The notes below the pieces were generated by a model. The model was given only the letters and a program-made list of their open reading frames with translations. It was not told the DNA's origin and did not search any database. From the IMG/VR virus record IMGVR_UViG_3300037499_000265, positions 1 through 64,000 of that record: a stretch of 64,000 nt of DNA. One strand, given 5' to 3'. This DNA is from a virus. The first letter of the stretch is position 1. Each line of letters begins with the position of its first letter. A program made the position numbers and the translations under genes. Below, one piece after another: positions 13,258 to 23,614 of this stretch.

Positions 13258-13448
13258 GAGCCTCTCACCTCACGGCGCCGACGGAGAACGCTGATCCGAC
13301 CGCCGAGGTAGTAGCGCCACTCGACGTAGCCGTAACGCTCAGAGAACAGTGGGTGACGATGGCGGCCGAACCGGATCGTCCAGTACGGAAAGACGACGTA
13401 GACGCATCGGTTCCGATGCCCGCCTCTATAGATGTGCTTCATCGTCAC
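13254..13448 (-). CDS. hypothetical protein
   Basis: ORF chain. Confidence 0.55.
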   Translation of the reverse strand: MTMKHIYRGGHRNRCVYVVFPYWTIRFGRHRHPLFSERYGYVEWRYYLGGRISVLRRRREVRGS

Positions 13449-13974
13449 TGCCTCGATCGCTGTCGAGCTGGTAGTGGTGCTCGATCAGCCAGGTGAGCTG
13501 GTCCCGCAGCTTGATGGCGTCGTTGATGTGAAGATGTGCCACCGCCTCTTTCGTCGGTCCGTCCAGTTCGTTCAGGTCCTCTGGGCAGGTGACGCTCACC
13601 CACACGTGCGGCGCCGTAGCGGCGCTCGACTCGTATGCCTTGACGTGTCCGCCGTAGGCGCTCGGGATCTTGTCGAAGTGGGCGAAGCCTCGCTGGCTGA
13701 TCGTCGGCTCGCTGTCGCTCGGTGCGGTCGGGGTCAATCCGACGATCTGTCGGACCAGGAGGTTCGGCGGACCCTCGATGACGGATCTGGGGCTGGAGAC
13801 GGTAAATCCTGAGATCACGTCGACGATCGCACCGAAGATCTCGATCTCCTCGTCCGCCTTTGTCCAGGCCTTGTCGGTGACCCGGAACCAATCCACCACA
13901 CCCTCGAAGGTGATGACGATCAGGTCACCCTTCTTCAGCCCGTCCAGGCTCTGCCATCGTTCGGTCGTCATCAC
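13426..13974 (-). CDS. hypothetical protein
   Basis: ORF chain; C-terminal GGHVKAYESSAA..PHVW region. Confidence 0.65.
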   Translation of the reverse strand: MMTTERWQSLDGLKKGDLIVITFEGVVDWFRVTDKAWTKADEEIEIFGAIVDVISGFTVSSPRSVIEGPPNLLVRQIVGLTPTAPSDSEPTISQRGFAHFDKIPSAYGGHVKAYESSAATAPHVWVSVTCPEDLNELDGPTKEAVAHLHINDAIKLRDQLTWLIEHHYQLDSDRGSDDEAHL

Positions 13975-14375
13975 ACACCCTCTCTACCTTCGGCCAGCTG
14001 TTTGCGGCCGGTGTCGGTTAGTGCCAATACCCCGCGGCGTGCCTGGTGAAGGTAGCCAATCGCGTAGTCCTTCTTAGCCAAATCCGCCTTGAGGACTGCC
14101 TGTATGAGCTTTCGCTCGCCAGCAGTCAGGAGTCGGTAGCTGAACAACGTGGTCCACCAGCGAAGCCGGAGTTGGCTGCCGTGCCACCTGAAGCTGACCT
14201 GCTCGTCGGCGATCGCTTGCAGGACCCTGAGCGTTGGGTGAGCTTCCTGGTACGAGTGGCACGGGCAGTCCGGGCAGCACAACGGTGGCCAGTGCCAGGC
14301 AGCCTCGCAACCACCGGCATGGCACTGGTCGCTGTGGTAGATCGATTCCGTGCCGCAGATGCAGACGTGTGTCAT
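13971..14375 (-). CDS. Cys-rich hypothetical protein
   Basis: ATG 14375 overlaps TGA of orphan helicase tail. Confidence 0.6.
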   Translation of the reverse strand: MTHVCICGTESIYHSDQCHAGGCEAAWHWPPLCCPDCPCHSYQEAHPTLRVLQAIADEQVSFRWHGSQLRLRWWTTLFSYRLLTAGERKLIQAVLKADLAKKDYAIGYLHQARRGVLALTDTGRKQLAEGREGV

Positions 14376-14425
14376 CGCACGATCCCCGGAGCGATGATTG
14401 TCTGCTTTGCGGCTCTCGTCACGGC
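14372..14425 (-). pseudogene. orphaned original 3' end of RecD-like helicase (AVTRAAKQTIIAPGIVR*)
   Basis: 16 consecutive identical aa with 15225..15278, 8 synonymous differences. Confidence 0.85.
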
Positions 14426-14566
14426 ACATGCCTCACATCGAATGCGTTTTGGTGCTGATAGTGCTTCATACACGGGGTCCTCCCAGTCAGCTCGGTTCTT
14501 GTTCATAGAGCCAAGACGCACCCGACGTTCTGTTTCGTGTCCGCAGGCAAGATGAAGACTCCACCA

Positions 14567-15238
14567 TCATTCATTGGGACTCAGTTCTGCGTATTCAACA
14601 GTGATGAAAGGCGGTGTCCCAACCCGAGCCTGTCGAACAGATCGATCAAGAACTGTATGACAAGGTCGACACATCGGTTCATAGTAGGAAAGATCCGAAC
14701 TATATACCAGTGAGAACTGACCAACGATTTCAACAGATTCGTTCGGGTCGTTGTACTGATATGCCCAATCTCGTGCACGTTTCCCACACTTAATGCATAC
14801 CTGATCGGACGCCTTTCCACGTTCCCGGCTTAAACGAAAGTGAACGGCGTTGTATGTGGCATCTGACCCGCCATATCGCGGTTCTGCTTCACCAGGATCG
14901 CCGTCACTCCTCCATCGTTGGTAGTGAAGACTGCACCAGCCTCGGGCTAGAACTTCTTCATCACAGCCCTCAACACTGCAGGCTTGACGTGGCTTGGGGT
15001 AGATCGTTTTCTCTGGATCGCCGTTGCGTAGCCAGCGACGATAGTGAAGATCACAGTAGCCTTTGCTCCGAGCCTTTTCGTCGCAGCCAGATGCCTCACA
15101 TGTTGATTGAGGTTGACGCTCTAGTTGCTCTGGGTCACCGTTACGTTGCCAACGGCGGTAGTGGAGGTCGCACCATCCGCGAGCTTTCAGCGGGCCTTTG
15201 CACCCGTCAATAGAGCATGTCTGTTCAGCCACGAACAA
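14567..15238 (-). CDS. HNH-type homing endonuclease with three N-terminal C-x4-C...WC.LHY zinc-finger repeats
   Basis: CSIDGC..ARGWCDLHYRRW x3; YNAVHFRL...CIKC...CRPCH; AT-richer than flanks. Confidence 0.75.
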   Translation of the reverse strand: MFVAEQTCSIDGCKGPLKARGWCDLHYRRWQRNGDPEQLERQPQSTCEASGCDEKARSKGYCDLHYRRWLRNGDPEKTIYPKPRQACSVEGCDEEVLARGWCSLHYQRWRSDGDPGEAEPRYGGSDATYNAVHFRLSRERGKASDQVCIKCGKRARDWAYQYNDPNESVEIVGQFSLVYSSDLSYYEPMCRPCHTVLDRSVRQARVGTPPFITVEYAELSPNE

Positions 15239-16511
15239 TCCCTGGTGCGATGATTGTCTGTTTTGCAGCTCTTGTCACAGAAGTATACAGCCAGGCCCGG
15301 GCTTGATCGTCGCCAGACATGTAGCGAACTCCGTGTGACTCGTCGATCACCAGGACCTTATCAGCGTCGCTGCCCTGAAACTTATGCGTCGTGATTGCGT
15401 AGGAGAACGTCGCCACGCCGGTGCCTCGTCCGACTCGCATCCCGCGGGCCTCACGCTCGGCCTGCTCCTGCTGCTTCTTGCCGAGGAACCCACCGAGCAG
15501 GACCGGGATCTCGTACGGCGCGTCCTCGCCGTCCATGTCGACACCGGTCAGGTCCATGATGCCGTCGCGAGTCCTGGCGCCGGTGACGCGGAGCTGCTGG
15601 CCGTTGTAGACACCCAGGTCGTAGTTGTTGGCCAGGATGATGACCTTCTCGCCCGGGTTGGGGATGTCGCCGTCGTATCCGTGTGCCGCACGCAACATCC
15701 GGTTGATCCGCCAGCGGGTGTCATTCTTCCAGCACACGATGGCGGAGAAGCGCATCGCCTGCTCTACGGTGATCGGCCGGTCCCAACGTCCGGACGGCGG
15801 GCCGTCGTCATCGCCGGCGATCATTCCGTCGACGCCGAAGTTCCGGCCGTCGCCGTGCCGGATCGCGGTGGCCACCTTGATGACGCTGGACAGCCCTCCG
15901 AAGCGCTGAGGCTCGGTGAGCAGCACGTCGGGCTCGTCGTTCATGAAGTAGCCGGTGCCGCGGACCGGGGGGAGCTGGGCCGGGTCACCGATCACCAGGA
16001 CCGGTACGCCGAAAGACAGCAGGTCTGCTGCCATCTTGTCGTTGACCATGGAGACCTCGTCGATCACGACCAGCTTGGCGTCGTTCAGCGGGGAGTCCGG
16101 GTTGAGCACGAAGCCGGGCTGGGACAGCGCCTTGCGCTCTTCCTCGATCAGCTTGGCCAGTTCGAGTCGGCGAGCCGTTCCGGCCTTCTCGTGCTCGCGC
16201 AGCAGTTCCTCGAGGCGCTGCTTCGCACGCATTACCGGGATGTAGATCAGTTTGTGGATGGTCATCGCGCCGAAGCAGCCCTTCTGGCGCAGCCGATACG
16301 CAGCCTTCCCGGTGAACGCGGCGTAGTAGACCTCGTTCGGGGCGATGCCGAGCTCGGCGACGATGTGCTTGGCCAGGAACGTCTTGCCGACGCCGGCGTG
16401 GCCGAACAGCCTGAACACCTGGCGATCCTGGTCCGTCCACCACTGTTTGACAGTTTCGACCGCGCGGAGCTGGTCGGGTGAGAGCGTGACGGTGTCGTTG
16501 ATCAGACTCAT
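15225..16511 (-). CDS. RecD/Dda-like SF1B helicase
   Basis: GHAGVGKT, VIDEVSMV, GDPAQLPPV, YAITTHKFQGS, LYTSVTRA. Confidence 0.9.
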   Translation of the reverse strand: MSLINDTVTLSPDQLRAVETVKQWWTDQDRQVFRLFGHAGVGKTFLAKHIVAELGIAPNEVYYAAFTGKAAYRLRQKGCFGAMTIHKLIYIPVMRAKQRLEELLREHEKAGTARRLELAKLIEEERKALSQPGFVLNPDSPLNDAKLVVIDEVSMVNDKMAADLLSFGVPVLVIGDPAQLPPVRGTGYFMNDEPDVLLTEPQRFGGLSSVIKVATAIRHGDGRNFGVDGMIAGDDDGPPSGRWDRPITVEQAMRFSAIVCWKNDTRWRINRMLRAAHGYDGDIPNPGEKVIILANNYDLGVYNGQQLRVTGARTRDGIMDLTGVDMDGEDAPYEIPVLLGGFLGKKQQEQAEREARGMRVGRGTGVATFSYAITTHKFQGSDADKVLVIDESHGVRYMSGDDQARAWLYTSVTRAAKQTIIAPGIVRG

Positions 16512-16738
16512 AGCTTGTCCTTCCAGGGAAACTGCTCGGGATTCAGCGGTCGGGCGTGCTCATCGGTCGCGATACGGCGAGCGTCCTCGAGATTGTCAGG
16601 GTAGAAGACCTCGTCGTGGTTGTTGACCATGGCGTAGGGCGTCTGCTTCGCCACCTCGATGCAGGTGATCGAGTGCAGGGTGTCGTAGCCACAGTGCTCG
16701 CAGATCACCACTTCGTGACCGTCGTTCTGGCTCATCAA
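16508..16738 (-). CDS. hypothetical protein
   Basis: ATGA overlap. Confidence 0.55.
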   Translation of the reverse strand: MMSQNDGHEVVICEHCGYDTLHSITCIEVAKQTPYAMVNNHDEVFYPDNLEDARRIATDEHARPLNPEQFPWKDKL

Positions 16739-16971
16739 TGGTTCTCCGCAGGCCGGTACAACAACAGGACGTTGTCACTGTCGGATATCGAGATGTCCAA
16801 GACAGATTCTTGATGGGTCTCGCTAGTCAAGTCGCCAGCGCCAAGAACAGTCTCGATGATCTGTCTGGTCGGCCAGGCACCGTTGATCGAGATGACCGTG
16901 CCGATGTGTCCAGACGGGCTGACGATGACGTCGCCGTTCCGGATCTGATCGAAGCGGATGAGTTGTGCCAT
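16735..16971 (-). CDS. hypothetical protein
   Basis: GGAGG RBS behind promoter at 17008-17036. Confidence 0.6.
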   Translation of the reverse strand: MAQLIRFDQIRNGDVIVSPSGHIGTVISINGAWPTRQIIETVLGAGDLTSETHQESVLDISISDSDNVLLLYRPAENH

Positions 16972-17007
16972 AGGACCTCCCTCGGTACGTCCGAACTCTA
17001 CCTTTTA

Positions 17008-17036
17008 ATTGTATCAGACCTCAACGGGAGTGTCAC
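17008..17036 (-). promoter_or_regulatory. sigma70/HrdB-type promoter
   Basis: GTGACA-N17-TACAAT. Confidence 0.65.
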
Positions 17037-17044
17037 TACTCAGC

Positions 17045-17677
17045 TCATTGTCGCGGTCCGTGACGCCATACCTCGTCGGCATTCATCTCGTGGTCAGAGT
17101 AGTAGTCGCAGTCCGGGTGGCGGCAGTTCCCGCTGGCGTCGATGTCGTGGGCGTGTCTGATCGAGGTGGGAGGGGCGTAGACGGTGTCGTGGTACTTGGT
17201 CGGACAGTAGCCGCGGATGCGCCAATCCTCATCATGTTCGCGGACGTAGTCGGGATCTGGCGGGAACACCGGCCAGACACGCAGCACATCATCTTTGGCG
17301 ATGGTCTTCAAACCACTGGTAGATGCCTCGATCGTGAACTCGTCAGACTGGACAGTGATGATCTTTCCGTAATCCCGTCTAACCGAACCTTCCCAGCGAT
17401 AGTCGACACCGATCTTCTCACCGACCTTCAGGAGGGAGTCTAGGTTCTGCAACACGGTGGGTGTCGGCGTTGGCGCCCAGTTGTCGGCCGCCGACGTCGT
17501 CTCGCCGTGCATCATAGCCGCGGCGCACGGCTGGCACATCCACAGCCGGATCGGACGGTGACCTCCCACCGCGTCGCCCTCGGTCTCGAGCAGTTTGAAG
17601 GCGCCCTCACCGACCTTGTTCGGGCAGGTGAGGTTCGCGCAGTTCTCGGGTAGGTTCACCGGAGTGAGTTCGATCAT
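17045..17677 (-). CDS. hypothetical protein
   Basis: ORF chain. Confidence 0.6.
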   Translation of the reverse strand: MIELTPVNLPENCANLTCPNKVGEGAFKLLETEGDAVGGHRPIRLWMCQPCAAAMMHGETTSAADNWAPTPTPTVLQNLDSLLKVGEKIGVDYRWEGSVRRDYGKIITVQSDEFTIEASTSGLKTIAKDDVLRVWPVFPPDPDYVREHDEDWRIRGYCPTKYHDTVYAPPTSIRHAHDIDASGNCRHPDCDYYSDHEMNADEVWRHGPRQ

Positions 17678-17877
17678 GATGTCATCTCCATGATGTCGGG
17701 CGGGTCGTCAGTCGGTTCGATCTCGTCTCGGGTGTACCACCTGCGAGTCCGGTCGAAGACCCGGTGGCCACGACGATGTTCGACCAGGAACCTGCCGTAT
17801 CTGATCTTCTCGATCTGACCGACGTGGTTGCCCGGGACGATGACTCGGTCACCGACCATGAGTTCTTGATCAGACAT
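17674..17877 (-). CDS. SH3-like hypothetical protein
   Basis: MSDQELMVGDRVIV; ATG 17877. Confidence 0.55.
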   Translation of the reverse strand: MSDQELMVGDRVIVPGNHVGQIEKIRYGRFLVEHRRGHRVFDRTRRWYTRDEIEPTDDPPDIMEMTS

Positions 17878-18052
17878 ACTGTCGACGTTCCTCGGCCGCG
17901 ATGGCACGGTCCAGATCGTCGAGTGGTTGCCGTTCGGCATCGGTGACCTCGACGACTTCCGAACCCCAGATCGTCAGGTTGTCGATGGCGATCTCGATAT
18001 CGTCGGTGATGATGACGTCGCCGTCATCGTCGATGATCTTCCAGAGTCTCAT
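17870..18052 (-). CDS. hypothetical protein
   Basis: GGAAGG RBS, overlap chain. Confidence 0.55.
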   Translation of the reverse strand: MRLWKIIDDDGDVIITDDIEIAIDNLTIWGSEVVEVTDAERQPLDDLDRAIAAEERRQYV

Positions 18053-18582
18053 GGCCGTCCTTCCTCCAGTCTGGCGATTGCGTCGACGATCGTGGCGCTG
18101 GTCGGCAGAGCCTCTAGGTACGCCTTGATCCCGATCTTCAGCCCGTGAGCGGTGCCGAGACGAATCATGCTCGAGTCCTCGCCATCTTCCTCCCTGATGA
18201 CGAACCCGTGAGCATGCCCCAACCCGCTCGCACGCATGTCACGCATCATCACCAGGGTGTCTTCAACGGCCGCATGGGCCTTGGCCAACGGGGGAACGTC
18301 GGCCAACTCGTCCTCGGCGATCCGTGCCGCCGCTGGCACCGTTGTCGATGGTGCGGACTTGGTGAAAACGGTGCGTTGGATGTCATCGTCGTCCTTGACA
18401 ATGACCTTGAAGACGTTCTCGGCGAGCTGGACGTGGAAGATGACCTGACCGGTGATCACAGCAGCCCCGCAGAGGTCACGACGAGCAGAGCTAGGCTGCT
18501 GATGATCGCCACCTGTATCGTGACCAGCAGTGTCCGGTAGAACCAGACGATCGCTGTCGTGTTCAGAGTGTTCATCGCTCAC
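18049..18582 (-). CDS. hypothetical protein
   Basis: ORF chain. Confidence 0.6.
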   Translation of the reverse strand: MSDEHSEHDSDRLVLPDTAGHDTGGDHQQPSSARRDLCGAAVITGQVIFHVQLAENVFKVIVKDDDDIQRTVFTKSAPSTTVPAAARIAEDELADVPPLAKAHAAVEDTLVMMRDMRASGLGHAHGFVIREEDGEDSSMIRLGTAHGLKIGIKAYLEALPTSATIVDAIARLEEGRP

Positions 18583-18892
18583 CGTCCTTACGTCGTTCGT
18601 TCTTGTCGATCCACGGCCCGCGTTTGTCGCAGCGCAGCGAGCCGCAAGCGCATCGCTCGACGCGGGTGAACCAGTTCGTCCAGGCCCTGGTCTGCGCTTG
18701 GCATCGGTGAATGCGGTCAGGTAGTGGTGCGTCGTGCCATGCCACTCCGTCTAGATGGAAGACCTCGAGTCGACGGTCCTTGGAGCGGTACTTCAACTGC
18801 CAGCGACTCTCATCCGGCTCCGGTTCGGAACCAGGCGGTTTGGTGGAACGGCGGTCGAGAATGGCTTCGAGGATCTCGTCGATGAAATTCAT
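18572..18892 (-). CDS. conserved actinophage hypothetical protein
   Basis: HRCQAQTRAW...ERCACG. Confidence 0.65.
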   Translation of the reverse strand: MNFIDEILEAILDRRSTKPPGSEPEPDESRWQLKYRSKDRRLEVFHLDGVAWHDAPLPDRIHRCQAQTRAWTNWFTRVERCACGSLRCDKRGPWIDKNERRKDGER

Positions 18893-19290
18893 GACGATGC
18901 CTCGTGTTCTGACCTGGGCAGGTTGCAGAAGTCGACGTATTCGAAGTCGCCGGAGTCGTACGAGCAGTACCGGCCATCCGGCAAACCTTGATAAGGATGA
19001 TCAATCTTCAAACGGGGGGCCGCGTCATCGCTCGACTGAGGCTGCGTGATCTGTTCGAGCAGGTCGCGTCGTTCGCGGTCGAGCTGGGCGAGGTTGATGC
19101 CGAAGAACTCGGCGAGCAGAGCCTCGTTGGTCTTGCGGATCGGCACTAGCTGCGGGGCATCGTAATGATCGAACTTGACGTACTCACTGACCCAGTAGCC
19201 GTTCTCGCCCAACCAGTCGACGAAGTCGCCGATCGTCTGGTTGTCGCCGGACTTGACGACCTTGGTGAACTTCTCGAGTTCAGTGGTCAT
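18889..19290 (-). CDS. hypothetical protein
   Basis: AGGAGGTCCGACATG start. Confidence 0.7.
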   Translation of the reverse strand: MTTELEKFTKVVKSGDNQTIGDFVDWLGENGYWVSEYVKFDHYDAPQLVPIRKTNEALLAEFFGINLAQLDRERRDLLEQITQPQSSDDAAPRLKIDHPYQGLPDGRYCSYDSGDFEYVDFCNLPRSEHEASS

Positions 19291-19300
19291 GTCGGACCTC

Positions 19301-19423
19301 CTACGAGAAGAAGCTGTAAACGGCCATGCCGGCGAGAACGAGAAGTCCGCCGATAGCGATGGCGACGATAGTGCCCCACGAGTTGGGCTCGCACTCGGTC
19401 GCGGTTGTAATGATCATGTGCAT
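19301..19423 (-). CDS. small membrane protein (40 aa, not in ORF track)
   Basis: identical AGGAGGTCCGACATG start; one hydrophobic helix. Confidence 0.6.
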   Translation of the reverse strand: MHMIITTATECEPNSWGTIVAIAIGGLLVLAGMAVYSFFS

Positions 19424-19462
19424 GTCGGACCTCCTGTTCGTTCGGTGTCTATGTCGAGACCA

Positions 19463-19491
19463 ACAGTATCAGGCTTTGTGGTCAGTGTCTA
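19463..19491 (-). promoter_or_regulatory. sigma70/HrdB-type promoter
   Basis: TAGACA-N17-TACTGT. Confidence 0.7.
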
Positions 19492-19520
19492 CAGACTCCC
19501 CGACGATAGATGGGACATAT

Positions 19521-21311
19521 CTAGTCTTTTCTGTACACATCGCCCCAAGTAGGACCTCTACGGCCGACGTCGGCAAGGATCTGGATGGGACGAGCGTTCG
19601 GCATGTTCTCCGGCGCCCACTCGAACGACAGTGCCTCGATGACTGACTTCTCAACGTCCTCAACTACCTCAGTTGGGACAGATAGGACAATCTCGTCGTG
19701 GATGATGCCACGCAGGAACGGGTGCAGGATAGCTGGCAGCCGAAGCAGGCCCTCGCAGATCAGGTCCCGGGCGCAGCCCTGGCCCATCAGCGCTGGCCCT
19801 TGGGTATAGGCGCGCATCCGATCTGGGCGCATCTTCCGGCCGAACCCATTGTCCAGCAGCCGGCCGGACTCAGCGATCTCGGCCTGTTCGTTCTTCCAGA
19901 CGTTCAACCGGGGAAACTGCTCGCGCATCTGCCGGTAGAACTGATTCGCAGCTTTAGGATCAATTCCCATCTCAATGGCGTGTTTCATCCCGAGACCATA
20001 GTTGTAGCCGTGGTTCAGCGGCTTGACCTGCTCACGCATCTTCTCGGTACCGAACACCCGCTTGGCCACCTCGGCGTGCAGGTCCCGATCCGGTCCGAAC
20101 AGGTCCATGTAACCGCGGTCCTGGCTGAGCACGGCGACCGCTCTGGCGTCGACCTGGGACAGGTCGGCGGAGATGATGACGTGGCCGGGTTCGGGCAGGA
20201 AGATCTCACGTTCGATATGGCGTCCGCCTCGCTTGCCCATCACGGTCAGGCCGGGCTTGGTGAACGAGAGCCGTCCCGAGGCCTGACGTCCGGCGATATT
20301 GGGATGCACCCGCCAACCGACAGAATCTTGCACCATGTTGTTGGCGACGGTCTCGTACACCGTGCGCACGCCGTTGAGATCCTGGATGGTCTCGGCCAGC
20401 GCGGCGATCTCCTCCTGCTGAGCCGATGGCAGTCCGCCCTTGTCGGTGCCGTAGTGGGCGATCATCTTCTCCATCGCCTCTTTGCCGGTCGCCCAAGCAC
20501 CCTTCGGGGTCTTCGGCATGTACTTGGCGCCGATCGCCTCGAACGCTTTCCTGACCGCCAACCGACCGGCCTGGGTGTTCTGTGGCGCAGCCGAAGGCTG
20601 CCCGTCCTTGCGGGTGGTGGGCAGCCCGTACTCCGAGGTCAGGCGTTTCAGAATCTTCGCCCGCTTGGCCCGGCCGGCGTCGACTCGCTTGACGACCTCG
20701 TCACGATCCACTCGGAAGCCATTGAGCATGATCTGCGCGCAGATCGCGGCGATGTGGTGCTCGCGCAGCGCGTACGGCCAGAGCGAGCGGTTCTCGCCGC
20801 ACAGTCGGTCCGCTACTTCGTCGGTGAGTGCGACGTCCTGGTCGAGGTACGCCTGGAACCTCGGCTCCCACCGCGGGATCCCACCCCAGGATCCGTACTC
20901 GCGGACCAGCTGCTTGGACACGTCGACGTGCTTGCGCTCGCCGTTCAGACGGGTCGACACCGAATCGAGCGAGTAGTGCTTGTTGACCTGGCCGGCGTTC
21001 ATCCGCGCGGGCGGTGGATCGTCTAGGAAGGCGATCAGCATGGTGTCACGCAGCTTGCCTTGTTTGGCCAGCTCGACGAGGTTGTCCAGGCCGAAGTGCT
21101 TGGCGAGCACGAGGAAGTCGAAGCCCAGGGTGTTGTGCCCGCCGAGGGTGGCTCCGTACTGCAGGGCTCGGACGATCTCATGGCCGTCGGTGGTGATGTG
21201 CACACCCTCGCCGGTGGAGTAGCCCCCGACCCGGAAGAACTCCGGCCCCATCTGCCAGAGTTTGGACGAATCGTGTGTCTCTAGGTCAAAAGAGATATGT
21301 GGGCTGATCAT
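19521..21311 (-). CDS. polA: DNA polymerase, family A (3'-5' exonuclease + polymerase)
   Basis: FDLET, GHNTLGFDF, SADLSQVDAR (motif A), REQVKPLNHGYNYG (B), IIHDEIV (C); likely start ATG 21311. Confidence 0.92.
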   Translation of the reverse strand: MISPHISFDLETHDSSKLWQMGPEFFRVGGYSTGEGVHITTDGHEIVRALQYGATLGGHNTLGFDFLVLAKHFGLDNLVELAKQGKLRDTMLIAFLDDPPPARMNAGQVNKHYSLDSVSTRLNGERKHVDVSKQLVREYGSWGGIPRWEPRFQAYLDQDVALTDEVADRLCGENRSLWPYALREHHIAAICAQIMLNGFRVDRDEVVKRVDAGRAKRAKILKRLTSEYGLPTTRKDGQPSAAPQNTQAGRLAVRKAFEAIGAKYMPKTPKGAWATGKEAMEKMIAHYGTDKGGLPSAQQEEIAALAETIQDLNGVRTVYETVANNMVQDSVGWRVHPNIAGRQASGRLSFTKPGLTVMGKRGGRHIEREIFLPEPGHVIISADLSQVDARAVAVLSQDRGYMDLFGPDRDLHAEVAKRVFGTEKMREQVKPLNHGYNYGLGMKHAIEMGIDPKAANQFYRQMREQFPRLNVWKNEQAEIAESGRLLDNGFGRKMRPDRMRAYTQGPALMGQGCARDLICEGLLRLPAILHPFLRGIIHDEIVLSVPTEVVEDVEKSVIEALSFEWAPENMPNARPIQILADVGRRGPTWGDVYRKD

Positions 21312-21348
21312 CGGTACGGTAGCGAGGTAGCGGGAGTAGCGGCGTCCA

Positions 21349-22419
21349 TCAGTCCCCCTGGTTGGCGATGCGAAGCAAGATCGATGCGTGACAGGGAGCC
21401 GGAACGCACCAGCAGACCAGGTCTTTGCCGCGGAGTTCTTTCCTCGCTGCGGCGACCAGTTCACGCTGGGTCGGCAGCCACTCCTTGTAGCGTTCGATGC
21501 TGGTTCGCTTGGACTGTCCTCGCCACGGGTTCGACCACCTGGTTCCCGGCCCGACATAGACGGCGTCCAGCGGGACTTTGTCAAGCTGCTTGTTGAACAC
21601 CTTCGGAGGTCGATGAGGCTCGCTGCGCTCGCTCTCATCTGACCGTGCTCGCTCAACCTCTTCAACGACGACCGGAGTCTGTGACGTCGGAGTGATGCGG
21701 GTCATCAACGGGACGTTGCGATGCTCGACAGTCGGCGCATCCTCCGGCGCCAGGTCCTCATCGGAGGCTGCTATCTCCAGTAGGTTGTCCGCGTGGCAGG
21801 GGAGAGGGGCGCACCAGCACACCAGATCCTTGCCGCGCAGTTCGTTGCGGACCTTCTCGACGAGGTCGGGCTTGTTCAGCAGCCACTCCCGGTGCCGGGC
21901 GACGTTGATCTCTCTGGTCTGCCCGCGGAACGTGCTGTCCCACGGCGACGACCGGCCGACATAGACCGCTTCTTCCGGGATGTAGTCTCTGGACTTGTTC
22001 AGTACCTTCGGCGGGCGGTCTTCGCTGACACGCTCGATCTTCGGTCGTTCGACCAGTTTCTCGATGGGGTTCTGGGTGGTCGTGATGACCGGTCTGGCGA
22101 TCGGTTCCGCCGCGCGCTCGACGGTCGGCTTGTCCGGCTCGGCGATCGGTTCGTCGGAGTTGCTGACCTCTAGTAGGACGTCCGCGTGGCAGGGTAGCGG
22201 CGCACACCAGCACGTCAGGTCGTGGCCGCGGAGCTCACGACGGGCTCGTTCGACGAGGGCAGGCTGGTTCAAAAGCCAGGCACGGTAGCGTTGGATGTTC
22301 GTCGCGCGATTCGAACTGGAATAGGGATTGCCCCAAGGTGATCCGCGACCGACGTAGATTGCATCGCGGCCGATATGATCTTTAGTTCGGTTTAGCACCC
22401 GCGGAGCTTGATCGCTCAC
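21349..22419 (-). CDS. protein with three tandem DUF4326 domains
   Basis: 3x V(L/F)N...YVG.G(S/T).W...ELRG.DL.CWC.P.PCHA. Confidence 0.85.
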   Translation of the reverse strand: MSDQAPRVLNRTKDHIGRDAIYVGRGSPWGNPYSSSNRATNIQRYRAWLLNQPALVERARRELRGHDLTCWCAPLPCHADVLLEVSNSDEPIAEPDKPTVERAAEPIARPVITTTQNPIEKLVERPKIERVSEDRPPKVLNKSRDYIPEEAVYVGRSSPWDSTFRGQTREINVARHREWLLNKPDLVEKVRNELRGKDLVCWCAPLPCHADNLLEIAASDEDLAPEDAPTVEHRNVPLMTRITPTSQTPVVVEEVERARSDESERSEPHRPPKVFNKQLDKVPLDAVYVGPGTRWSNPWRGQSKRTSIERYKEWLPTQRELVAAARKELRGKDLVCWCVPAPCHASILLRIANQGD

Positions 22420-22463
22420 GATATACTCCAGACGCTTACATCGGATATGATACTGTCGATACT

Positions 22464-22958
22464 ATGGCATCCATCCCAACTAAGCAATCTGGCCAAACCT
22501 GTGCGTTTCCAGGCTGCAACAAGCCGACCCGTGCACGTGGGTTTTGCGTGGCTTGTTACTATCGCCAGCTCCGAGCTGGAGAGATAGTCTCGGGTACTCC
22601 GACAGAGCGGTTTAGGCACAGGCTGTCCGATATCGATTCTGAAGTTGGGACAGCTATATGTGCTGTCTGCGGTCCTACCAAGGTCTATCGAAGAAGCGGT
22701 GGGGGCAAGCAATTTCGATGTGGAACTGAGGCGAATGAGCGTTCGAAACTTTACAAGCGAGCATATAGAGCTAGTAGAAAAGTAGTGATGGGAGACGAAT
22801 GCGAAATTTGTGGTAATTCTGACAATCTTCGCTGGGACCATGATCACGCCACCGAAGAATATCGAGGAACGCTCTGCAATACGTGCAACCTAGGACTAGG
22901 TTCGTTTCGAGACGACCCAGAGCTGTTGATGAAAGCGGCTAAGTACCTACACAGGTAG
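22464..22958 (+). CDS. HNH homing endonuclease, endonuclease VII-like
   Basis: CEICG...WDHDHAT...RGTLCNTCNLGLG..RDD; opposite strand, AT-richer. Confidence 0.85.
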   Translation: MASIPTKQSGQTCAFPGCNKPTRARGFCVACYYRQLRAGEIVSGTPTERFRHRLSDIDSEVGTAICAVCGPTKVYRRSGGGKQFRCGTEANERSKLYKRAYRASRKVVMGDECEICGNSDNLRWDHDHATEEYRGTLCNTCNLGLGSFRDDPELLMKAAKYLHR

Positions 22959-22999
22959 ATCGAGTCGCGACCGACATGGTCCTTGGTCCGGTTCAGCAC
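22955..22999 (-). pseudogene. orphaned original 5' end of DUF4326 gene (VLNRTKDHVGRDSIY)
   Basis: 13/15 aa identical to the gene at 22419; 7 synonymous differences. Confidence 0.85.
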
Positions 23000-23178
23000 G
23001 CGTGGTTCTCGTCGTACCTCCACAGTGCGATCACCACCCTCCCGGTTATCGTCCATCCCAGCATGACGGTCCAGCGGCCCCACTCGTCCGAGCCATAACG
23101 GACAGGCCACAACGTGGACCAACCGTGCCAGTACCACTCGGGATGGTAGAGCCAGACTCTAGGTTTGCGTTCACTCAT
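22993..23178 (-). CDS. small Trp-rich hypothetical protein
   Basis: ORF chain. Confidence 0.6.
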   Translation of the reverse strand: MSERKPRVWLYHPEWYWHGWSTLWPVRYGSDEWGRWTVMLGWTITGRVVIALWRYDENHAC

Positions 23179-23179
23179 A

Positions 23180-23614
23180 TCAGTCCCACTCTGTCTCTTC
23201 GGCCTGGATCTCGGCCCTGATCTTCATCAGGATCCGCCCGAGTATGTTCTCACCGACACCGTTCACCGTGCCCCAGTACCTGTCGCCCCAAGTGTTGTCC
23301 TCTTCAAGGTGGGCGTCGCCGGTGGCGAGCAGCATCCGTCGCAGCTTCGGGACGGCAAACTTGTCCCGAACGCAGAGTTCCATGATCCCATTCTTCCGTT
23401 GCTCCCAATCCTCGCGTATCGCCACCTGTCGTCCGCGACGCTTGGCCTCGGTCGGGCTCGGCGCCGAGCGGACCCAGGTCGCTTCCTTCGAGGTCGCGGC
23501 CTTGATGCACTGGAACCGATGCTCGACGGTGGCGTGGTGCTCGCTGCCCGAGACCGGGTAGAAGTTGGACAGCCATCGGTACTTCCCGGAGAACGAGGTG
23601 ATCGCCTCGGTCAT
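23180..23614 (-). CDS. NADAR (YbiA-like) family protein
   Basis: LSNFYP...TVEHRFQ..K...KF...LLATG...EDNTWGDRYWG...GENILGRILMKIR. Confidence 0.9.
   Translation of the reverse strand: MTEAITSFSGKYRWLSNFYPVSGSEHHATVEHRFQCIKAATSKEATWVRSAPSPTEAKRRGRQVAIREDWEQRKNGIMELCVRDKFAVPKLRRMLLATGDAHLEEDNTWGDRYWGTVNGVGENILGRILMKIRAEIQAEETEWD

Follow-up and report, generated by a model that had tools for sequence, protein, structure and literature searches.

The window analysed in this study is the first 64 kb (64,000 nt) of the IMG/VR record IMGVR_UViG_3300037499_000265, a complete phage genome of 127,505 bp with direct terminal repeats and a GC content of 0.62. On its minus strand, a gene encoding a Dda/RecD-like helicase is followed by a free-standing gene for an HNH-like endonuclease, by a spacer and by a second, orphaned copy of the last codons of the helicase, which runs into the next gene. 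Elsewhere in the window, an Endonuclease VII gene is located at the opposite (5') end of a gene for a DUF4326 protein, where the 5' codons of the target are likewise present twice. The features of both loci are listed in Table 1. The nearest cellular homologues of the helicase are found in Micromonospora and related actinobacteria, and the nuclease domain family of the HNH-like protein is present in phages of Mycobacterium, Gordonia, Streptomyces and Rhodococcus; on these affinities, the host of the phage is probably an actinobacterium.

Table 1. Features of the helicase locus and of the DUF4326 locus in the window. GC3, GC content at third codon positions; ORF, open reading frame.
Feature	Coordinates	Strand	Basis
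Downstream Cys-rich gene, 134 aa	13971..14375	-	ATG overlaps orphan TGA
Orphaned native helicase tail, AVTRAAKQTIIAPGIVR and stop, GC3 0.67	14425..14372	-	Direct reading
Chimeric mini-ORF, 33 aa: 16 cassette codons (MYEALSAPKRIRCEAC) plus the 17-codon orphan	14372..14473	-	Direct reading
Cassette spacer, 141 nt, GC 0.53, open in the HNH/orphan frame	14426..14566	-	Direct reading
Free-standing HNH-like endonuclease gene, 221 aa, GC 0.52, GC3 0.45	14567..15232	-	PHROG, AlphaFold2 (AF2) model, structure search
Dda/RecD-like SF1B helicase gene, 428 aa	15225..16511	-	Pfam AAA_30, AAA_19, UvrD_C_2; PHROG 325
Low-GC3 3' tract of the helicase gene, putatively donor-derived (co-converted)	15225..15338	-	GC3 change-point; left boundary uncertain, ~15287 to 15398
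Working copy of the repeat (17 codons, SVTRAAKQTIIAPGIVR), AT-rich at third positions	15231..15281	-	Direct reading
Target gene, protein with three DUF4326 repeats	21349..22419	-	Pfam PF14216, E 1.6e-58, 3 stretches
Cassette-supplied 5' end of the DUF4326 gene: GTG start 22419, SDQA, then PRVLNRTKDHIGRDAIY in AT-rich codons	22354..22419	-	Direct reading
Second homing-endonuclease gene: Endonuclease VII domain, 164 aa, GC 0.51, GC3 0.47	22464..22958	+	Pfam PF02945
DUF4326 orphan: native 5' end, PRVLNRTKDHVGRDSIY, GC3 0.82	22955..23005	-	Direct reading

The helicase matches the Dda-like helicases of PHROG 325 with an E value of 1e-78, and its assignment to SF1B is given by an AAA_30/AAA_19 core together with a UvrD_C_2 domain in which motif VI (TRA) is present. 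When it was aligned with 13 homologues, motif VI (YTSVTRA) was found intact and the protein full-length without any splicing, and its C-terminus, WLYTSVTRAAKQTIIAPGIVRG followed by the stop, is the usual end of the family, a few residues past motif VI, in all 13 of the aligned sequences. The gene is complete, and its 3' end differs in composition from the rest: GC3 is 0.88 in codons 1-391 and 0.46 from codon 392 on, falling to 0.30 in the last 20 codons. Placing a change-point there raises the log-likelihood by 17 over a model with none, with plausible boundaries between codon 372 and codon 409. The C-terminal end itself, SVTRAAKQTIIAPGIVRG and the stop, is encoded at 15281-15225 (minus strand) by TCT GTG ACA AGA GCT GCA AAA CAG ACA ATC ATC GCA CCA GGG ATT GTT CGT GGC TGA.

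The second copy of this tail lies 856 nt downstream of the first, past the HNH-like gene (14425-14372, minus strand), with the codons GCC GTG ACG AGA GCC GCA AAG CAG ACA ATC ATC GCT CCG GGG ATC GTG CGA TGA. The original prediction, made from the letters alone, had described two copies sharing 16 identical residues and separated by eight synonymous changes, and a direct reading of the sequence bears this out. The 16 shared residues are VTRAAKQTIIAPGIVR; besides the eight synonymous codons there is one S/A difference, and 10 of the 51 nt differ. Identity thus amounts to 16/17 amino acids against 41/51 nt, the longest identical run being 14 nt, and over 18 codons the GC3 of the working tail is 0.33 compared with 0.67 in the orphan. 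If 10 substitutions are placed at random in 51 nt, at most one non-synonymous codon change results in 8 of every 100,000 trials (P=8e-5). The ratio of eight synonymous to one non-synonymous difference indicates that both copies diverged under purifying selection, each in a working helicase gene, and this synonymous-only pattern argues against divergence in place following a local duplication. Judged by composition, the working tail belongs to the endonuclease cassette, while the orphan, which abuts the next native gene, is nearer to the body of the helicase.

A six-frame self-comparison of the whole genome (127,505 bp) returned only two duplications at the peptide level with diverged DNA, with E values of 8e-10 and 3e-9, and both of them flank low-GC endonuclease genes; a chance origin is excluded. 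One is the helicase tail. The other belongs to the second-strongest low-GC island of the genome (22351-23050), which holds the Endonuclease VII gene. Its product gives 57.2 bits with PF02945 against a cut-off of 23.6 (E 1.5e-15, residues 108-163) and bears an N-terminal zinc finger of the type seen in the HNH-like protein. The gene is antisense to its putative target, the DUF4326 gene, and borders the 5' end of it, for which the cassette supplies a new GTG and a GGAG; a low-GC3 tract reaches about 37-62 codons inward from that end. The two copies of the 5' end differ by nine synonymous and two conservative codon changes (P=5e-5), so that 15/17 amino acids and 39/51 nt are identical, with a GC3 of 0.53 for the working copy compared with 0.82 for the orphan. 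The orphan still overlaps the stop codon of an upstream gene of 61 aa (23178-22993), and the TAG stop of the Endonuclease VII gene falls in its last bases. In both cases the orphan is on the side of the neighbour that is not the target and overlaps the start or stop signals of that neighbour. When both cases are pooled, the working copy has A/T at 12 of the 14 third positions where the copies differ as GC versus AT. The second case, an independent one, thus repeats the layout with a nuclease of another family and with another target, mirrored both in the gene end concerned and in orientation.

The DUF4326 gene contains three tandem domains (the motif GKDLVCWCAPLPCHAD occurs three times) whose repeats are 71-79% identical in DNA. 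Further low-GC islands (GC below 0.54) are found at 55.5-56.05, 85.8-86.45, 101.55-102.05 and 111.7-112.2 kb. The first contains an ORF of 89 aa between tail-fibre-like genes, the second an ORF of 233 aa and one of 96 aa, and in the third DNA repeats were seen; the fourth is an internal part of an ORF of 628 aa that, by sequence reading only, resembles an HNH-helicase fusion. The four islands were considered as endonuclease cassettes with duplications and were rejected; no gene-end duplication was detected at any of them by k-mer and BLAST self-comparisons.

The HNH-like protein combines three CxxxGC..G.C..HYxRW zinc-finger repeats with a C-terminal beta-beta-alpha-Me-like domain. Its N-terminal repeats match PHROG 5351 and 1271, annotated as HNH endonuclease, and the C-terminal domain matches PHROG 4160 and 22195, of unknown function. 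No nuclease domain was found in Pfam or NCBIfam, Foldseek with the whole model gave nothing significant, and a sequence profile search of the PDB returned spurious matches only; among these and the structural searches, the HNH class was pointed to solely by the exhaustive structural search. The AF2 model of the C-terminal domain (residues 127-211) has a predicted local distance difference test score (pLDDT) above 90, and the top structural matches in VIA-align are HNH enzymes, the best being 5h0o with a modest Z of 5.7 (root-mean-square deviation 3.1, 65 aligned residues), with 8yb6, 4h9d, 5mkw, IscB, EndoVII, McrA, Cap5, Hpy99I and I-HmuI following. By this model and these matches, the domain has a beta-beta-alpha-metal fold. 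In an alignment of 19 family members, H133, C148, C151, W158, H194 and D198 are invariant, and the paired CxxC zinc ligands on either side of the motif, C148-x2-C151 and C190-x2-C193-H194 (the latter as CxxCH at the helix), are invariant or nearly so. The catalytic general-base histidine (DH/HH motif, at the end of strand 1) is missing: residues 158-165 read WAYQYNDP here versus WAYDH.DP in 10 of the 19 members, with G at this position in several others. It may be that many nucleases of this actinophage family are catalytically degenerate, or that they rely on a different base, for instance the invariant H133.

The HNH gene begins at the stop of the helicase gene, in a different frame. GTG 15232, and not TTG 15238, is its likely start, being preceded by AGGGA (15243-15239) at a spacing of 6 nt and in agreement with the N-termini of homologues (M..C[ST][VI][DE]GC). 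This Shine-Dalgarno (SD) sequence and the GTG sit within the helicase tail that we take as imported, and in the native tail the equivalent P-G codons serve as the SD of the next gene. In composition the HNH gene is foreign to the genome (see Table 1). A weak sigma-70-like match, GTGACA-17-AATCAT (9/12), was also seen at 15278-15250 (minus strand), within the imported tail and shortly before the HNH gene begins; the scanned region gave two matches of this kind where 0.6 are expected, and this one is too weak to use.

Between the HNH gene and the orphan, the spacer (14426-14566) contains neither a terminator nor an unusual RNA structure (fold z-score -0.4). It does contain a GGGAGG (14484-14479) that is followed, after 5 nt, by a GTG (14473-14471) in frame with the orphan. 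In this respect too the original prediction was correct, as it had described a GGGAGG and a GTG at 14473 opening a 33-aa mini-ORF whose TGA overlaps the next ATG: the sequence, read directly, has the TGA of the orphan (14374-14372) and the ATG of the next gene (14375-14373) overlapping as ATGA. The next gene, whose Cys-rich product is without match in Pfam and PHROG, also has its own GGGGA SD at 14387-14383, inside the orphan and 7 nt before its ATG. Genome-wide, GGAGG occurs at 255 sites versus about 450 expected from composition, a depletion of about 1.8-fold on both strands, which suggests selection against internal SD-like motifs. Where a start codon follows such a site within 4-10 nt, long ORFs are over-represented and the ORF behind it is mostly a real one, and the chance of finding an in-frame GGAGG plus start within the 141-nt spacer was estimated at 0.015-0.05. 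By these counts, GGGAGG-5-GTG is probably a genuine ribosome-binding site, and it may equally derive from the 5' end of whichever gene came next in the donor, brought into frame with the orphan through chance or selection.

Two observations on reading frames at this junction are worth recording. The HNH ORF, its TGA stop (14569-14567), the 47 stop-free codons of the spacer and the orphan form one reading frame (14372-15238, minus strand), so that readthrough of one TGA would yield a nuclease with the orphaned helicase tail fused to it; the shared frame may be a coincidence, as the prior is about 1 in 3 for being in frame and about 0.15 for a spacer without stops. Additionally, an ATG at 14427-14429 (minus strand), right at the junction of cassette and orphan, opens a reading of the downstream gene of 152 aa that is in the +1 frame of the orphan, and gene callers that choose the longest ORF would probably mis-start this gene at ATG 14429 instead of ATG 14375.

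The arrangement as observed is well supported, and the mechanism that we propose for it moderately so. It is likely that a cassette with an HNH-like homing endonuclease gene (HEG) from a lower-GC donor phage replaced the end of the helicase gene by homologous repair on the side of the gene and by illegitimate joining on the other. The donor would have been a related phage of lower GC in which the endonuclease gene came immediately after that of the helicase, with translational coupling between the two; as the start signals of the HNH gene are inside the imported tail, this placement in the donor is probable, and tail and HEG would travel together. A break would have occurred in the recipient helicase gene, in or next to the codons of motif VI, at about the T410/A411 boundary. 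On the gene-body side, recombination with the donor helicase would have brought in its final 20-55 codons together with the endonuclease gene and the 141 nt that follow, and the graded low-GC3 co-conversion tract would be the product of this homologous repair. On the other side, where the neighbouring genes differ and homology was presumably lacking, the copied DNA would have been joined illegitimately to the broken end, leaving the recipient's last 17 codons as an orphan attached to the next gene. The orphan is on the neighbour's side, and this is most simply accounted for by homing between two phages with the target gene in common but with different neighbours. The inner boundary of each orphan would then mark the break, at the T410/A411 codons in the helicase and at about codon 22/23 in the DUF4326 gene, where the same process would have produced the second cassette at the 5' end. 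In this way the helicase would be kept intact, with a xenologous tail that is synonymously diverged.

The claim of the original prediction that the cassette brings a replacement helicase end agrees with the low GC3 of the working tail, the improbability of its synonymous pattern (P=8e-5), the intact motif VI and the existence of the second cassette. Its further suggestion, of immunity to re-cleavage through recoding, is plausible. A target at the inferred break would have been changed in the working copy and cut short in the orphan, and thus the genome would not be re-cut; immunity of this kind requires a recognition site that extends across the junction. Synonymous differences are to be expected of an allele from a lower-GC donor anyway, so that the recoding is no proof of immunity.

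Relatives for comparison proved scarce. A megablast of 13400-16600 against 50,697 phage records found no match, and a single-protein scan of IMG/VR with the helicase found no relative; in profile scans, the best match was 48% identical in IMG/VR and 40% identical in metagenome contigs. The original prediction had named a duplication in HNH-free relatives as what would refute it, and a second TRA tail copy was present in 0 of 160 distant helicase loci, all of them distant relatives; an HNH gene after the helicase was likewise absent in the two distant relatives with downstream ORFs listed (L003 and L007).

Several points weigh against import from a donor phage by an active homing enzyme. The HNH-free comparison is confined to those distant relatives, the closest helicases (P0002, P0003 and P0004, at 78, 65 and 62% identity) being proteins only. 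The closest homologue of the HNH protein is 44% identical, and no donor was found. Furthermore, the tail copies are 16/17 alike in protein, compared with 13/17 to the nearest known helicase, so that the donor would have to be near in protein and far in codon usage. At 80 IMG/VR loci with related zinc-finger endonucleases there was no convincing flanking duplicate of a gene end, and the matches obtained were HEG-internal repeats, NUMOD-type paralogues or plain DNA repeats, which indicates that a gene end plus an orphan is not the routine outcome but an uncommon one. Finally, with QY in place of the canonical DH, present-day activity of the HNH protein is doubtful, and the enzyme may now be weak or dead. 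Homing endonuclease genes are often described as weak or dead once they have spread.

Other origins for the duplication have to be considered. The record is an assembled IMG/VR contig, and it might be a chimera in which reads of an HNH-bearing and of an HNH-free strain were joined, the duplication being only apparent. We consider this very improbable, because the longest run shared by the copies, 14 nt, is below the k-mer lengths that assemblers typically use, the junctions are outside the shared sequence, the layout occurs twice at unrelated genes, and there is coherence throughout in the reading frames, in the ATGA overlap and, at the second junction, in the stop codon of the HEG. Even less credit can be given to a local tandem duplication of the gene end that was later separated by insertion of the endonuclease gene, with the copies diverging in place. 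Duplications that flank insertions can indeed come from replication slippage or arise as target-site duplications; however, a copy that is redundant or not translated should gain non-synonymous changes, and the ratios seen are 8:1 and 9:2 (P of about 1e-4 each), while the third-position bias of the working copy fits a foreign HEG and not the genome. The least probable of all is an intron, an intein or an integrase-type element with att sites that duplicated the gene end. Phage HNH genes are often located in group I introns, and integrative elements at gene 3' ends carry a replacement end, but no Rfam match was obtained at E<=1 across 13900-23400, the HNH gene follows the helicase stop codon in another frame, the helicase is complete without splicing, and the cassette of 0.86 kb contains no integrase or recombinase.

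A further alternative develops the original prediction in an adaptive sense. According to it, the cassette would be an adaptive portable unit that always carries a deliberately recoded gene end, for immunity, together with its own SD and GTG that re-initiate translation across the orphan and keep the next gene coupled. We regard this as unlikely, although it has more in its favour than the alternatives above: the in-frame GGGAGG-5 nt-GTG and the ATGA at the end of its ORF, the low frequency of GGAGG in the genome and the small chance of such a site in the spacer, the new GTG and GGAG that the second cassette gives to its target, and the fact that gene ends are indeed carried along by the mobile ORFs of mitochondria (PMC3630166). 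Against it, the next gene has its own SD within the orphan, 7 nt before its ATG, the SD and GTG of the cassette could stem from the gene that came next in the donor, with an in-frame fusion prior of 1 in 3, and no other copy of the cassette was found in which conservation of the spacer could be seen. Moreover, the AT-rich "recoding" reaches past the duplicated block and matches the composition of the HEG, as would a donor allele without selection for immunity.

The layout of the two loci has its closest counterpart in the mobile ORFs (mORFs) of fungal mitochondria that carry the C-terminal end of a gene, in atp6 of Allomyces macrogynus and in atp6, atp9, cox2 and nad3 of Glomus sp. (PMC3630166, citing Paquin et al., 1994). 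As in those elements, an endonuclease ORF is found here at the end of a conserved gene, with a foreign terminus in phase with the gene body, then the endonuclease ORF, and the native terminus displaced downstream (PMC3630166); inserted and native ends are alike in protein and diverged in DNA, the inserted one being foreign. The cassette at the DUF4326 gene is a mirrored, 5'-end version of this layout. The mORF layout was interpreted as horizontal transfer driven by the endonuclease (PMC3630166), as we propose here. Unlike the mORFs, the elements described here are in a double-stranded DNA phage and not in a mitochondrion, the helicase duplication is short (17 codons), and the nucleases are HNH-like and Endonuclease VII rather than LAGLIDADG or GIY-YIG. 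In addition, it is at a 5' end that the second cassette acts, with a new start codon and with its HEG antisense, and the orphans overlap the translation signals of their neighbours.

Among phages, one-sided, illegitimate repair of double-strand breaks in homing was shown experimentally in T4, with junctions at microhomologies, as summarized in a later review (Parker, Belisle and Belfort, 1999, via PMC2988022). The free-standing HEGs of T4-like phages (seg, mob) resemble the present ones in being intergenic or at gene ends, with the target in a neighbouring conserved gene and with co-converted flanks (PMC2988022). The natural examples described in that review either lack a duplication or have a split host gene, as with mobE in nrdA and mobA in gene 60 (PMC2988022); here, in contrast, the gene is whole through its imported end and the native orphan remains. 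The ShiLan element, an out-of-frame "hidden" HNH insertion in an actinobacteriophage DNA methylase, is likewise an HNH homing element in or at a coding sequence that does not destroy the host gene (PMC11855218). Translation passes through ShiLan in frame, so that it forms an additional loop in the methylase, whereas here a duplicate end completes the gene and the HNH gene is a separate downstream cistron. With respect to the second cassette, whose nuclease is free-standing beside its presumed target gene, F-CphI of cyanophage S-PM2 is also a free-standing homing endonuclease of the Endonuclease VII type (PMC6083498); its abstract describes the enzyme family and mentions no duplicated end of the target gene, and the N-terminal zinc finger of the second cassette is an actinophage-type module. 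In limited literature searches, which are not proof of absence, we found no description of the gene-end-plus-orphan layout or of its 5'-end version in phages.

Phage genomes are mosaic, and conserved genes such as the helicase are often placed between unrelated neighbours, so that a moving HEG will often meet homology on one side only. The two loci look like natural products of this situation and suggest that a HEG can cross between dissimilar phages without killing its target or the neighbours of its target. The boundaries of the orphans predict the cut sites, in the codons of helicase motif VI and near the 5' end of the DUF4326 gene, and this makes two uncharacterised nucleases of actinophage type testable as site-specific enzymes. 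A short peptide duplicate with synonymous divergence and a flanking low-GC ORF may also serve in annotation as a signature of recent HEG invasion, and the same signature can expose errors in gene calling, of which a start at ATG 14429 and the 49-aa ORF would be examples. It is a tentative and rather doubtful extension of these findings that phage HEG cassettes are self-contained "gene-end replacement modules", in which an immune synonymous terminus houses the signals of the HEG and a restart ribosome-binding site and start codon keep the neighbour coupled; if this were true, invasion across non-homologous neighbourhoods would be harmless by design and not by accident. Phage HEGs may share the gene-end-carrying behaviour that has been described for mitochondria.

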